A DNA stretch of 64,000 nucleotides from an uncultured delta proteobacterium (GTDB lineage: Bacteria > Myxococcota_A > Polyangia > Fen-1088), in NCBI GenBank assembly GCA_963737265.1, contig CAVTRY010000019.1:1-64000 (forward strand), given 5' to 3'. This document shows, piece by piece, positions 2,031 to 10,832 of the stretch. The notes under the pieces were generated by a model that ran no database searches, was not told the DNA's origin, and was given only the letters and a program-made list of their open reading frames with translations. A program made the translations under genes and the position numbers. The stretch's first letter is position 1; each line of letters starts with the position of its first letter.

Positions 2031-2875
2031 CCAACGTCTCCGTAGACACGGTCAAGCCGAGCGCGCTCAACGCTCTGCTGGTGCTTCTGCGCGCGCTCAA
2101 GCTGCCTGCCTTCACCCGGCACGCCGAGGAGATCGCGATCAAGGCCAGCCGCGAGGGGTGGACCTTCAGCCAATACCTCCAGCACCTGGCCGAACTGGAA
2201 ATCGAAGAGCGCCGAACCCGTCGCATCGATCGCGCGCTTCGCGATTCGGACCTTCCCACGGAGAAAACCCTGGCCACCCTGGAACGTGGTCGGCTGTCAC
2301 CCAAGGTGATGAAGCAGATGGCGAGCCTGTGTGAGGGTGGCTTTGTCGAACGTGGGGAGAACCTGCTCGTCTTCGGACTGCCCGGCCGAGGCAAAAGTCA
2401 CGTTGTGGCTGCCATCGGCCACGAACTCATCCGGCGCGGCTACCGGGTCCTCTTCACGCCGACCTTCGCGCTTGTCCAGAGGCTGCTGGCCGCCAAGCGC
2501 GACCTTCGCCTGGAACGAGAACTGGCCGCGCTCAACATCTATCACGCCGTGATCCTCGACGACATCGGCTACGTCCAGCAGAGCCGCGATGAAATGGAGG
2601 TCCTTTTCACCTTCCTGGCCGAGCGGTACGAACGCAAGAGCGTCCTCATCACCAGCAACCTGGTCTTCAGCGATTGGATCCGCATTTTCAAGGATCCCAT
2701 GACCACCGCCGCCGCCATCGACCGACTGGTCCACCACGCGGTCATCCTTGAGATGACCGGCCCCAGCTACCGCAGCGAAGAAGCACGAAAGAGAGGCGTC
2801 ACCACCCCAGCGACAACTACGACAACTACCGATCAACCAACGACAACTACCCCCGACAACAATGGGGCGATGTAA
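2027..2875 (+). CDS. istB: IS21 helper ATPase IstB
   Basis: Walker A GLPGRGKS, Walker B VILDDIGY, ITSN, AAIDRLVHH; ATGA overlap with istA stop. Confidence 0.95.
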   Translation: MTNVSVDTVKPSALNALLVLLRALKLPAFTRHAEEIAIKASREGWTFSQYLQHLAELEIEERRTRRIDRALRDSDLPTEKTLATLERGRLSPKVMKQMASLCEGGFVERGENLLVFGLPGRGKSHVVAAIGHELIRRGYRVLFTPTFALVQRLLAAKRDLRLERELAALNIYHAVILDDIGYVQQSRDEMEVLFTFLAERYERKSVLITSNLVFSDWIRIFKDPMTTAAAIDRLVHHAVILEMTGPSYRSEEARKRGVTTPATTTTTTDQPTTTTPDNNGAM

Positions 2876-3023
2876 TTGACGTCACCGGGTGAATGTAGTT
2901 GACGTCCAGCATGCTGAGCGACAATTACATCTCCCCAAAGACGACAGCTACGTCGCCCCGCTTTGAGGCGCGACGGTGACCGTGAGGTAGACCTCCAAGC
3001 CCGCAAGCGGGCAGGAGGCACCT

Positions 3024-4523
3024 TTGAAGCCGGTCACCGACGCCCAAGTGAGGCGTTTGATGGAAGAGATGAGCAAGATTGGAAAAGTAGGCCAGGCCGC
3101 CATGAAGGCGGGCATGGACCGGAAGACAGGGCGGCGATACATCGCCGCGGGCAAGCTACCGTCGGAGCTACGGCAGCCGCGGTGGTGGCGGACGCGCCCT
3201 GACGCGTTCGCCGAGGACTGGCCAGCCGTGGCCAAGTTGCTGGAGGAAACGCCTGGGCTGGAGGCTCAGACGGTGCTGGAGCTGCTGGAGGCGAAGCAGC
3301 CAGGGCGGTACAACGAGAGCCATCTTCGGACAATGCAGCGGCGAATCCGTCGCTGGCGGGCCGAGCATGGTCCTGCGCGTGAGATTTGGTTCACGCAGGC
3401 GCATCGGCCCGGTGAAGCCGCGCAAACCGACTTCACGTCGACGGCGGAGCTTGGTGTGACGATCGTGGGCCAGCTATTTGCGCACCTTTTGTGCGTGACG
3501 GTGCTGCCGTACTCGAACTGGCAATGGGCGACCGCGTGTCTGTCGGAGTCTCTGGCAGCGCTTCGGCGAGGGATCCAGTCGGCGCTGTTCCAGCTTGGGC
3601 GGGTGCCGCGATACCACCAAACCGACCACTCGACGGCGGCGACACATCAGATCGCTCGCGATGCGGAAGATCGCACTTTCAACGATGAATACAAGGCGGT
3701 CATGCGGCACCTCGGAATGGAGGCACGAACTACAGCCGTCGGGGCCAAGGAACAAAACGGCGATGTGGAGGCCAGCAACGGCGCGCTCAAGCGTCGGCTT
3801 GAACAAGCGTTGCTGGTGCGTGGCAGCCGCGACTTCGCGGACCAAGACGACTACGAACGCTTCGTAGCCAAGGTGGTCCGCAAAGCCAACGCTTCGCGAG
3901 GCCCGCGCGTCGCCGAGGAGATCGAAGCCATGCGGCCGCTGGTGGTGGAGCGTTTGCCGGAGTACGCAGAAATGACGGCACCTGTGGCGTCGACGAGCAC
4001 CATCCGGGTCAAGTCGTGCGCCTACTCGGTGCCGTCGAGGCTGATCGGCGCACGGGTGAGAGTCCGCGTGTTCGAGCACCGAATCGAGGTGTACTACGCC
4101 GACAACTTGGAATTGGCCTGCGACAGGCTGCGAGGCAAGACCGCGCGCATCGACTACCGGCACGTCATCTGGTCTTTGGTGCGCAAGCCGGGCGCGTTTT
4201 CTCGCTACGTCTACCGAGAAGAGCTGTTTCCAAGCGTGACTTTCAGGCGGGCATACGACGCGATCCAGGCGACCAAGCCTGGAATCAAAGGCGACGTTGA
4301 ATACCTGCGCATTCTTCACCTGGCCGCCAGCACGATGGAAGCCGATGTCGAGCAAGCGCTCACGACTCTGCTTGCCGATGGGACCATCTTGACGGCGGAT
4401 GCAACCAAGAAGAGATGCACACAGGCGACGGACAGTACCTATCCACCGAGCGTCCCCGCGCTCGAAGCACCGCTGGTCGATCTCGCGTCCTACGACCTGC
4501 TCCTCGAACAGGTGGCATCATGA
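3024..4523 (+). CDS. istA: IS21 transposase IstA
   Basis: Near-identical to 531-2030. Confidence 0.95.
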   Translation: MKPVTDAQVRRLMEEMSKIGKVGQAAMKAGMDRKTGRRYIAAGKLPSELRQPRWWRTRPDAFAEDWPAVAKLLEETPGLEAQTVLELLEAKQPGRYNESHLRTMQRRIRRWRAEHGPAREIWFTQAHRPGEAAQTDFTSTAELGVTIVGQLFAHLLCVTVLPYSNWQWATACLSESLAALRRGIQSALFQLGRVPRYHQTDHSTAATHQIARDAEDRTFNDEYKAVMRHLGMEARTTAVGAKEQNGDVEASNGALKRRLEQALLVRGSRDFADQDDYERFVAKVVRKANASRGPRVAEEIEAMRPLVVERLPEYAEMTAPVASTSTIRVKSCAYSVPSRLIGARVRVRVFEHRIEVYYADNLELACDRLRGKTARIDYRHVIWSLVRKPGAFSRYVYREELFPSVTFRRAYDAIQATKPGIKGDVEYLRILHLAASTMEADVEQALTTLLADGTILTADATKKRCTQATDSTYPPSVPALEAPLVDLASYDLLLEQVAS

Positions 4524-5368
4524 CCAACGTCTCCGTAGACACGGTCAAGCCGAGCGCGCTCAACGCTCTGCTGGTGCTTCTGCGCGCGCTCAAGCTGCCT
4601 GCCTTCACCCGGCACGCCGAGGAGATCGCGATCAAGGCCAGCCGCGAGGGGTGGACCTTCAGCCAATACCTCCAGCACCTGGCCGAACTGGAAATCGAAG
4701 AGCGCCGAACCCGTCGCATCGATCGCGCGCTTCGCGATTCGGACCTTCCCACGGAGAAAACCCTGGCCACCCTGGAACGTGGTCGGCTGTCACCCAAGGT
4801 GATGAAGCAGATGGCGAGCCTGTGTGAGGGTGGCTTTGTCGAACGTGGGGAGAACCTGCTCGTCTTCGGACTGCCCGGCCGAGGCAAAAGTCACGTTGTG
4901 GCTGCCATCGGCCACGAACTCATCCGGCGCGGCTACCGGGTCCTCTTCACGCCGACCTTCGCGCTTGTCCAGAGGCTGCTGGCCGCCAAGCGCGACCTTC
5001 GCCTGGAACGAGAACTGGCCGCGCTCGACATCTATCACGCCGTGATCCTCGACGACATCGGCTACGTCCAGCAGAGCCGCGATGAAATGGAGGTCCTTTT
5101 CACCTTCCTGGCCGAGCGGTACGAACGCAAGAGCGTCCTCATCACCAGCAACCTGGTCTTCAGCGATTGGATCCGCATTTTCAAGGATCCCATGACCACC
5201 GCCGCCGCCATCGACCGACTGGTCCACCACGCGGTCATCCTTGAGATGACCGGCCCCAGCTACCGCAGCGAAGAAGCACGAAAGAGAGGCGTCACCACCC
5301 CAGCGACAACTACGACAACTACCGATCAACCAACGACAACTACCCCCGACAACAATGGGGCGATGTAA
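4520..5368 (+). CDS. istB: IS21 helper ATPase IstB
   Basis: Near-identical to 2027-2875. Confidence 0.95.
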   Translation: MTNVSVDTVKPSALNALLVLLRALKLPAFTRHAEEIAIKASREGWTFSQYLQHLAELEIEERRTRRIDRALRDSDLPTEKTLATLERGRLSPKVMKQMASLCEGGFVERGENLLVFGLPGRGKSHVVAAIGHELIRRGYRVLFTPTFALVQRLLAAKRDLRLERELAALDIYHAVILDDIGYVQQSRDEMEVLFTFLAERYERKSVLITSNLVFSDWIRIFKDPMTTAAAIDRLVHHAVILEMTGPSYRSEEARKRGVTTPATTTTTTDQPTTTTPDNNGAM

Positions 5369-5416
5369 TTGACGTCACCGGGTGAATGTAGTTGACGTCC
5401 AGCAAACTGACGATGT

Positions 5417-5479
5417 GTCCCTACGGGACTAGGGCCTACCCACCCAACCCCTGCCCCACGCGGCTTCGCCGCGCCCGTC
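5417..5479 (-). repeat. Hairpin/G-tract mini-element, copy 1 (63 bp)
   Basis: Minus strand GACGGG-CGCGGC GAA GCCGCG-TGGGGCAGGGGTTGGGTGGGTAGGCCCTA-GTCCC GTA GGGAC. Confidence 0.9.
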
Positions 5480-5711
5480 GCCGTCGGACCAAGGCCGCTT
5501 GAACTCCAGCCTCACGTGACCGTCGTCGAGGATCTTGAGGCGGTCGTTGGCCAGCGGCGGGCGCAAGATGTACTTGCACAGGTTCTCGCGACCCTTCTTG
5601 TCGTTGGCGGCGACCTTGGTCTGCGCATGCAGGTTAAACCCGGCTTGCTGGCCGTATAGCTTGCCCTTGGCCACGGGAGTGGCGTCTGGGTCGAGCACGA
5701 TACGCACGGGC

Positions 5712-5761
5712 GACGGGCGCGGCGAAGCCGCGTGGGGCAGGGGTTGGGCGGGCAGGCCCTA
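5712..5761 (+). repeat. Hairpin/G-tract mini-element, copy 2 (50 bp, opposite orientation, lacks second hairpin)
   Basis: GACGGGCGCGGCGAAGCCGCGTGGGGCAGGGGTTGGGCGGGCAGGCCCTA. Confidence 0.9.
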
Positions 5762-5880
5762 GCGCGCTTGTGCGCAGGGCCGGCGGGAGCGGCGCCCGCG
5801 GTGGCGGCGGCCAACAAGCGGGCCAGGAGCGGATCTTTGTCGCCCATGGTTTCGTCGGTGACGACGGTGAGCTCACCGTC

Positions 5881-5947
5881 TCCCCCTTCGGGGACTTCGG
5901 GACCTACCCCTCCACCTACCCGCCCCACGCGCTTCGCGCGTGCCCTC
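5881..5947 (-). repeat. Hairpin/G-tract mini-element, copy 3 (67 bp, divergent)
   Basis: Minus strand GAGGG-CACGCGC GAA GCGCGTG-GGGCGGGTAGGTGGAGGGGTAGGTCCCGAAGT-CCCC GAA GGGG-GA. Confidence 0.8.
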
Positions 5948-6186
5948 GCCTGGCGCGGTAACGAGGGTGATGACACCGACAGTGTGCAGCTGATTCTAGG
6001 GAGCGTGGGCGAGTCCAAGCCAGGAAGCGACCCAGGTCGACCCACGCTTCGAGAACGGGATAGTTCGCCCAAACATTGGGGCCCCCACCAGGGAAGAACT
6101 TTGCGAATCCGCATGATTGGATACGCCGCGCAGGGGAAGGCGGCGGCGTCATCCTGCCCTTCCGCAACGGCGAGCGCCAGATACAC

Positions 6187-10227: not shown

Positions 10228-10832
10228 TCAGCCAGTCTCCGCCCTCGCCACCAGATTGCGAGGGAGGCGGTCGTGCGGGCCAGAGTTTTGGCGCACAGGT
10301 GGGCAGGCCCATGGCCTTGAGGATTTCTTGATGGTGTCCTCGGTCTCGATCATGGCGATGAGGCGCAGAGGTGTTTTGCAGCGAGGGCAGACGGTGTCGA
10401 TCTCGAACGTATTTTTCAGAAGCTGGGACCAGGAAATGTAGTGTGAAAGTGGCAGTGAAGGCTTGTCGTCTTCCTCGGGCGCGGCCACGGCGGGGACTGG
10501 GACGACTTGGCTGCGGAGGCTGGAGTGCGAGGAGATGACCCCCGAGTATCTGACGACATGCCGACGAGGAGGGGGAACCAAGGCCGCCAAGCGCGCAATA
10601 AGGGCGAGCGGCGCAAGGTCGACCGACGATGTGTCCCTACGGGACTAGGGCCTACCCACCCAACCCCTGCCCCGCGCGGCTTCGCCGCGCCCGTCGCCGT
10701 CGGACCAAGGGTCCACTCCTGCTCGAAGGTCAGAAGATGCTGCTGGAGCACCTGGCAAAGGGCGGTCTTTTCCGGCTCCCGGCGGGCATAGGTGTACCCG
10801 GTCGCAGGTTTTGCGCATGCCGCTGCCTCCAT
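10228..10832 (-). pseudogene. IS91-family transposase with large internal deletion, mini-insertion and frameshift
   Basis: N-terminus YARREPEKTALCQVLQQHLLTF joined near 10710 directly to PWSDG|TSSVDLAPLALIARLAALVPPPRRHVVRYSGV...WSQLLKNTFEIDTVCPRCKTPLRLIAMI. Confidence 0.88.
10633..10695 (-). repeat. Hairpin/G-tract mini-element, copy 4 (63 bp)
   Basis: Identical to copy 1 except one base; same SDG|TSS insertion site. Confidence 0.9.

Follow-up and report, generated by a model that had tools for sequence, protein, structure and literature searches.

The question raised by this locus is what kind of sequence can interrupt a single transposase gene three times, each time by a few dozen nucleotides. 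The locus lies in the window, that is, the whole 64,000-nt stretch analyzed here (contig CAVTRY010000019.1 of assembly GCA_963737265.1, from an uncultured delta proteobacterium), and comprises a fragment of a transposase gene of the insertion sequence (IS) family IS91 with three short inserts. An earlier note, made from the sequence alone, had taken these inserts for copies of a small non-autonomous mobile element. That a tiny, non-autonomous element, which targets GGC and leaves no target site duplication (TSD), invades and inactivates IS91 is well supported by the evidence presented below; that the inserts belong to a family of 50–67 nt non-autonomous mobile elements of the HUH style, which prefer as well as inactivate IS91 DNA, we consider probable. 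The features concerned are:

5405–5978, minus strand: fragment of an IS91-family (Y2 HUH) transposase gene, recognized by PF04986, tblastn with the exon peptides, and paralogue alignments
5417–5479, minus strand: mini-element copy A, 63 nt, GAC-type, at site A, where it follows GGC, the Gly codon in the W-S-D-G motif
5712–5761, plus strand: mini-element copy B, 50 nt, GAC-type, without 3′ hairpin, at site B, opposite to the gene
5881–5947, minus strand: mini-element copy C, 67 nt, GAG-type, 5′ end GAGGGCA, at site C

The fragment corresponds roughly to residues 245–375 of a 501-aa protein; it is 5′-truncated near 5978 and 3′-truncated at 5404/5405 by an IS21-family element. The three inserts (63 nt, minus; 50 nt, plus; 67 nt, minus) were found where, and as, the earlier note had described them, and their deletion in silico indeed restored one reading frame (...GVITLVTAPG/DGELTVV...AHKRA/PVRIV...GFNLHA...KRPWSDG/TSSV, slashes marking the points of insertion). 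An intact 501-aa paralogue of the same genome (contig C8) aligns colinearly with the restored frame, the 77-aa middle exon of which matched Pfam Y2_Tnp (PF04986; E 4.2e-7). The terminal TSSV is in the restored frame as well, but insert A is followed by only 12 nt of IS91 before IS21 cuts the fragment. Copy B follows GGC between AHKRA and PVRIV; copy C follows GGC between VTAPG and DGEL.

Filled and empty sites were compared by aligning 18 copies of one IS91 subfamily, all from the genome to which the window belongs (6.55 Mb in 25 contigs, ∼63% G+C; 28 Y2_Tnp matches). Six of the copies contained no insert (C8, C14_428, C14_446, C14_450, C23_1, and C23_543), and one, C23:538544–540265 (C23_538), contained five; site A was empty in C8, C14_428, C14_446, and others. 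Between empty and filled sites, clean insertions of 67, 63, and 50 nt were observed, each immediately following GGC when read on the G-rich strand, and none of the comparisons of filled with empty paralogues revealed a target duplication, in agreement with the earlier note. The presence of insert-free IS91 copies in the same genome thus demonstrates that the segments are real insertions. Just upstream of the five-insert copy, at C23:538000–538330, three ∼100-nt tandem repeats with GGAAACCC-type palindromes were noticed. Insert-free alleles were also present in environmental contigs assembled from sequencing runs, each of which covered at most 0.26 of the stretch (four runs gave patchy contig cover; depths and uncovered parts were not used). 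Contigs from a DNA run are continuous across the site of the 67-nt insert and also across site B, there with three additional bases, and a contig from an RNA library omits exactly 50 and 67 nt. Because these contigs differ from the window at 3–14 positions per piece, they represent insert-free relatives, not processed transcripts.

Insert lengths of 50, 52, 64, 65, and 67 nt shift the reading frame, and the in-frame versions of 63 nt hold TAG or TAA stop codons (one TAA was flagged in G064:C100 during the Y2 scan). Frameshifts, in-frame stops, and the use of both orientations together suggest that the inserts inactivate the transposase gene. The inserts might instead be tolerated or even functional parts of the gene, removed at the RNA level, skipped by ribosomal bypass, or acting as a DNA switch that can be reversed by precise excision, which would restore the transposase. 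In several lineages, the insert at site A has a length of 63 nt and is thus in frame; some of the invaded genes show no other interruption (L060 and L062, where a single high-scoring segment pair runs across the insert); and HUH elements of the IS200/IS605 kind do excise precisely. It is difficult to reconcile this idea with inserts in both orientations, with lengths that are not multiples of three, and with stops inside the in-frame versions; moreover, matching take-off and landing codons were not seen at site A, insert-free alleles are present as DNA, and the RNA-library contig that skips the inserts belongs to a relative. A scan of window positions 5300–6100 against Rfam (E ≤ 10) returned just two chance-level matches (E 3 and 4.2). 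Ribosomal bypass and splicing were rejected on account of the two orientations, the stops, and the absence of an Rfam match (best E 3), and a function within the gene appears highly improbable altogether.

Read on the G-rich strand, all copies of the element share the constant 5′ end GA(C/G)GGC, followed by a 6–7 bp hairpin with a three-base GNA loop (hairpin 1), a G-tract that ends ...AGGCCC, and, in most copies, a second short GNA hairpin, the foot of which is the 3′ end of the element. In copy A, the order is 5′ end (GACGG), hairpin 1, G-tract, and 3′ hairpin; the hairpins were predicted by folding as single-stranded DNA (ssDNA), and the G-tract was read from the sequence:

5458–5474, minus strand: hairpin 1 of copy A, GCGCGGC-GAA-GCCGCGT, with a GNA triloop
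5435–5457, minus strand: G-tract of copy A, GGGGCAGGGGTTGGGTGGGTAGG
5417–5429, minus strand: 3′ hairpin of copy A, GTCCC-GTA-GGGAC, at the foot of which the element terminates

The G-tracts of copies A and B fit the quadruplex motif G3+N1-7, and that of copy A, in which four runs of three or more G are separated by loops no longer than 2 nt, is a G-quadruplex motif of the canonical kind. The 3′ hairpin is absent from about a quarter of the copies: short forms (50–52 nt) end with CCCTA(G), whereas long forms (63–67 nt) include it. Terminal inverted repeats (TIRs) were not seen, the two ends of the element not being inverted repeats of each other; many 3′ ends consist of a GGC-like triplet at the hairpin foot. 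The loop of hairpin 1 was GAA in 38, GCA in 4, and GAG in 1 of 43 distinct copies. In the 3′ hairpin, the loop is GAA, GCA, GTA, or GGA, and at least 10 different, mutually compensating stems were found across distinct copies (for example, GTCCC/GGGAC, GCCCC/GGGGC, ACCCC/GGGGT, GCTCC/GGAGC, GCACCC/GGGTGC, and CGTCGC/GCGACG). As judged by this sequence comparison, the structure of the element appears to be under selection. C(GNA)G loops of the d(GCGNAGC) type form exceptionally stable DNA mini-hairpins (PMC13037366, PMC3201870; these and the other publications given by PMC number are cited from part of their text), and the stability of GNA loops in DNA suggests that the structure matters as DNA rather than as RNA.

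The earlier note had also predicted that further copies would be enriched in IS91 or other ssDNA elements. A profile search (E ≤ 0.05) returned 27 copies in the window's genome, so the inserts are indeed members of a multi-copy family, and 24 of them lie inside, or at most 63 nt from, IS91-like (Y2-like) coding DNA, which makes up 43,570 bp or 0.66% of that genome. No element was found near any of the other transposase matches of the genome (41 rve, 30 DDE_Tnp_1, and 3 IS66); because these more numerous ISs of the DDE type have no copies by them, the simple explanation of IS91 as a neutral sink fails. When 89 genomes of the same family-level group were scanned with a sequence model, the element was present in 19, which belong to only two genera (g1, 8 of 12 genomes plus the window's genome; g32, 10 of 11); Y2_Tnp was present in 58 of the 89 genomes and in 17 of the 19 genera. 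Element-flanking, IS91-like coding DNA was recognized at 21 of 28 loci fetched from other genomes. A context-free scan of public metagenome contigs for the exact 27-nt core yielded at least 86 copies on at least 80 contigs; among the matches listed, IS91-like coding DNA lay within 300 nt of 72 of the 86 copies, and where the contig extended 300 nt or more to either side of the copy (56 copies), 48 were IS91-associated. The predicted enrichment in IS91 was therefore observed in the window's own genome, in other genomes, and in metagenomes, and the phenomenon extends far beyond what the earlier note could have recognized. The relatives that are named in public records are metagenome-assembled genomes (MAGs) of uncultured Myxococcota or “delta proteobacterium.” The family is almost restricted to transposase genes of the IS91 type, in certain Myxococcota from soil and peat. 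In one MAG contig, more than 10 near-identical intact IS91 copies were seen within ∼130 kb (L019–L031), and a similar situation was noted in G008:C9; this density indicates either a very active IS91 or a local array.

The claim that the element inserts precisely after GGC held for ∼70–80% of the flanks and failed for the remainder. GGC preceded the element in 38 of 47 distinct 5′ flanks from genomes (G at −3 in 38, G at −2 in 45, and C at −1 in 41, with other positions resembling background); among the metagenome matches listed, 57 distinct flanks had GGC in 40 and xGC in 51 cases. On a reference transposase, 107 of 151 element copies could be placed, and these fell into 32 site/orientation bins with hot spots at about residues 360–372, 288–294, 468–498, 126–132, and 156–168. 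The strongest hot spot is site A, exactly after the Gly codon of the conserved W-x-D-G motif (24 copies, 19 distinct flanks), which was hit in IS91 hosts 33–99% identical to the reference. Orientation is fixed per site and both orientations are used overall, with 16 coding and 18 opposite among distinct flanks in genomes, and 14 coding and 18 opposite by site bins. Among the metagenome matches listed, a bias of 32:16 toward the bottom strand of IS91 was seen by distinct flanks, which is not relied on here. Sites in coding orientation were confined to ∼residues 126–372 of the reference transposase; those in opposite orientation were located at residues 48–60, 228, 270–294, and 390–498.

Filled IS91 copies also allowed the history of the inserts to be considered. 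Between C23_538 and C12_78, insert 1 (54/54) and insert C (67/67) are identical, the exons matching at only 324/358, 338/371, and 106/118 positions (∼9% divergence); judged from these alignments, the elements appear younger than their IS91 hosts. The 67 nt of copy C occur identically in IS91 copies of C12, C14, and C23. Around site C, the filled C23_538 matches the empty C8 at 195/199 and 183/189 positions and is less close to other filled copies than to C8. Invaded IS91 copies with identical inserts are present at several loci with different right flanks, and IS91 copies are mosaic, as C12_78 and C14_446 agree at 349/358 positions in exon 1 and at 339/371 in exon 2. Within the window's genome, every site has its own element variant; across genomes, one element variant is found at different sites. 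We read this as the probable outcome of three processes, which are transposition to new GGC sites with IS91 DNA strongly preferred, copying of alleles between paralogues, and trans-mobilization of dead IS91; copying of occupied alleles between paralogues is suggested because the IS91 copies are visibly mosaic.

Several of these observations are also what pure hitch-hiking would produce, that is, a few old chance insertions that were multiplied by IS91 transposition and gene conversion, without any preference for IS91. Invaded copies are multi-copy (C23_538, C14_441, and the copy in the window share identical inserts), they are mosaic, and within the window's genome each site keeps its own variant. 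This explanation is at odds, however, with 32 site/orientation bins, with a single site hit in IS91 lineages 33–99% identical to the reference while the elements are far more conserved, with the same element variant at different sites in different genomes, with the absence of copies from the more numerous DDE-type ISs, and with 72 of 86 copies being IS91-associated in the context-free scan (among the matches listed). Hitch-hiking as the sole explanation is consequently regarded as improbable.

The absence of a TSD, the short target at the constant end, the subterminal hairpins, and the variable second end by analogy favor a single-strand mechanism of the HUH type. IS91-family elements likewise produce no TSD, use a short target by one end, and have subterminal palindromes (PMC13181058), and they employ single-stranded circular intermediates (PMC13181058, PMC3189936). 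For RAYTs, G-tetraplexes have been put forward as recognition elements (PMC4690160). The element would accordingly be expected to move as ssDNA by means of an HUH-type nuclease supplied in trans, which would nick between GGC and GA (...GGC followed by GACGGGCGCGGCGAAGCCGCG...) and read the hairpins. IS91 DNA would be preferred for some IS91-specific reason, with single-stranded transposition intermediates as the leading idea, and we infer that the rolling-circle intermediate of IS91 may be the target in its single-stranded form. Occupied alleles would also spread to paralogous IS91 by recombination, and through trans-mobilization of dead copies, and the net effect would be inactivation of IS91 transposase genes.

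A number of observations weigh against this reading of the element and its mechanism. Two junctions are not clean: at site 1, 52 nt are found in place of 3 nt, and at site 5, 65 nt are accompanied by one substitution. The 3′ ends vary (...GGGAC, ...GGGGC, GGGGT, and ...CCCTA), so that a fixed cleavage motif is not evident at the right end. Both orientations occur (29 copies coding and 43 opposite among the metagenome matches listed), which is a misfit with insertion into one displaced strand only. As for the confinement to IS91, three of the 27 copies in the window's genome are outside IS91 (intergenic and GAG-type), as are 14 of the 86 metagenome copies among the matches listed, and seven of the 28 loci from other genomes are without recognizable IS91. 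The demand for an exact 27-nt core in the metagenome scan inflates the apparent conservation of the element, and the genomes are MAGs related to each other, meaning that copies are not independent. With respect to the enzyme, no mobilizing enzyme linked to the element was found. The ends of the resident IS91 families (fam1 and fam2) are canonical, ...CAAGC/AAC on the left and ...CTATGG(C/T)C on the right (compare PMC13181058, PMC3189936); the element showed no similarity to their oriIS or terIS, and their ter motif is of the CAAG type, unlike GGC. A RAYT-like gene family, considered below, is flanked by unrelated tandem repeats of ∼30–45 nt, and the element was found near none of six loci of this gene that were scanned (L099–L104, five of them from other genomes). 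Finally, genome G002 contains 38 model matches, of which two are GAC-type copies inside IS91; most of the others are a GAG-type relative that forms the core of intergenic composite repeats. These GAG-type repeats imply that the family as a whole is not strictly bound to IS91, whereas GAC-type elements nearly are. The composite repeat of G002 combines the GAG-type mini-element core with a palindrome of the GGGAACCC type and with a hairpin, CCTCGCCCC...GGGCGAGG, and is present at loci L073, L088–L092, and L095–L098, in some cases in tandem arrays ∼220–270 nt apart.

Two sources of the enzyme were considered. The IS91 (Y2) transposase itself might mobilize the element, which would then be a miniature IS91, its bias toward IS91 resulting from cis-action of the transposase near its own gene. 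No HUH enzyme other than that of IS91 is abundant in the genome (28 Y2_Tnp matches), and on the transferred strand the resident IS91 families have ori ends that likewise start with GAC; the missing TSD, the short target at the constant end, and the subterminal palindromes are shared with IS91 (PMC13181058), and the variable other end resembles that of one-ended transposition (PMC3189936). Such a miniature should, however, look like oriIS and terIS of its parents and use their CAAG-like motif, neither of which is the case here; Y2_Tnp is moreover far more widespread (58 of 89 genomes, 17 of 19 genera) than the element (two genera), and a functional mini-IS91 needed ends of 82 + 89 bp (PMC13181058), to be compared with 50–67 nt for the whole element. 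The explanation is therefore thought to be rather unlikely. A GGC initially seen at the left boundary of fam1 dissolved when 13 left ends were compared, the boundary motif being CAAG-like; the right ends of fam1 and fam2 and the left end of fam1 are unrelated to the element, and a parent IS was not found, since each of the 27 genome hits could be explained and none coincides with an IS end.

The only gene family for a Y1-type HUH enzyme is RAYT-like and scores below threshold (21.8 bits with Pfam; 47 vs 80 bits with NF047646). It occurs in multiple copies and mainly in the two genera that also carry the element (g1, 10 of 12; g32, 10 of 11; others, 11 of 65), and the element adjoins one of its four copies in the window's genome. 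The Y1/RAYT gene flanked by the same motif that the earlier note had envisaged was not encountered, as these genes carry the unrelated tandem repeats mentioned above, and the RAYT-like gene is regarded as a weak candidate for the mobilizer. Copies of it are located at G000:C16:130175–130774 (L015/L099), C23:170311, and C22:93556. Inside the C16 copy sits a small palindromic repeat of a different kind (GGAAACCCTAGGAGTGTTTCC type), which makes this the second example of an HUH gene invaded by a small repeat.

If the preferred reading of an HUH-style element that favors IS91 DNA is taken further, the element might be a hyperparasite, an ssDNA element of 50–67 nt that enters single-stranded IS91 (circles or the transcribed gene), homes to DNA of W-x-D-G-type motifs, and possibly excises precisely, which would make it a possibly reversible off-switch of IS91. 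We put this forward tentatively, as a possibility that is less probable than not; if true, the host would possess a natural, possibly reversible limiter of its IS91 load.

Two further features of the window belong to the surroundings of the interrupted gene:

10633–10695, minus strand: fourth mini-element copy, A-type with one mismatch, at site A of an IS91 copy that has an internal deletion (∼10324–10832)
2912–5404, plus strand: IS21-family element (istA, 3024–4523; istB, 4415–5368), inserted in the IS91 fragment

A 22-nt core of the element occurs three times in the window, compared with 0.02 occurrences expected from shuffles, the third match being the copy at 10633–10695. In the IS91 copy that contains it (10324–10832), ∼residue 41 is joined to the W-S-D-G region by a large internal deletion, and its right end is duplicated further downstream. 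The IS21-family element is the second of a head-to-tail pair. It begins at 2912, immediately after the last letter of the other copy at 2911 (...gttgacgtccagca), so that the pair at 2700–5404 forms a tandem junction of the (IS21)2 type. Contigs from other sequencing runs end at 5404.

Small non-autonomous repeats are common; one so tiny, and almost confined to one family of transposase genes, is unusual and provides a clean natural case of one mobile element parasitizing another. It may help to establish at what times and places IS91-type DNA becomes single-stranded in vivo, and an enzyme that nicks between GGC and GA next to a GNA mini-hairpin and a G-quadruplex motif would represent a new HUH-type specificity. 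In other bacteria, resistance and virulence genes are mobilized by relatives of IS91/ISCR, so that a natural inactivator of such elements is also of general interest.

The element could not be assigned to a described family, either in Rfam or in the literature searched (supplements left aside); the earlier note had not recognized it as a described family either. Classical miniature inverted-repeat transposable elements are defined by TIR and TSD, and the element has neither. Repetitive extragenic palindromic (REP) sequences and BIMEs, which are associated with RAYT (Y1 HUH), are likewise short, GC-rich palindromic units without TSD, with presumed action at the ssDNA level. The REP signature of E. 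coli is GTAG plus a hairpin, which is not established for the element. The likeness to REPs extends to the GAG-type relative, which is embedded in intergenic composite repeats of a sister genome. REPs are extragenic and clustered round the RAYT gene, whereas the GAC-type elements described here are inside IS91 coding DNA, and the RAYT-like genes, unlike those of REP systems, are flanked by unrelated repeats. For REPs, recognition through G-rich 5′ halves and G-tetraplexes has been proposed (PMC4690160, PMC8266576, PMC3479197).

Of the properties typical of IS200/IS605 and REP elements, TSD-free insertion at a short target and subterminal hairpins were found, but a cognate Y1/RAYT gene with matching ends was not; the right ends vary, many of them being GGC-like triplets at the hairpin foot, and show no evident conserved cleavage motif. 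Described PATEs are far larger than 50–67 nt. With these and with IS200/IS605, the element shares insertion 3′ of a short target, the lack of a TSD, subterminal hairpins, and the existence of small non-autonomous forms (in part PMC6006769). Miniatures and one-ended forms of IS91 (IS801 fragments, mini-IS91) have no TSD, a short target, palindromes, and a variable end in common with it (PMC13181058, PMC3189936). They differ from it in that it has no parent oriIS and that its target is GGC instead of a tetranucleotide of the CTTG/GTTC (CAAG/GAAC) type (PMC13181058). A cognate enzyme or parent end, the link by which REP/RAYT, PATEs, and IS91 miniatures are each defined, was looked for and not found in any of the three cases. 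Helitrons are eukaryotic, kilobase-sized elements that insert at AT and have TC...CTRR ends, and are thus unlike the element; their non-autonomous forms resemble it in rolling-circle HUH transposition, the absence of a TSD, and a 3′ subterminal hairpin (in part PMC4778049).

RUP of Streptococcus pneumoniae is likewise a small non-autonomous repeat; it is reported to insert in ISs and to inactivate transposases, and a role in limiting the IS load has been discussed for it (PMC2229807). RUP has TIRs, duplicates a TA target, is attributed to a mobilizer of the IS630 (DDE) type, and enters more than six IS families, whereas the element described here has neither TIR nor TSD and keeps to a single IS family of the HUH type. 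Judged by analogy, the behavior of the element thus appears closest to that of RUP, and its anatomy closest to that of REP/RAYT, the PATEs of IS200/IS605, and miniature IS91.

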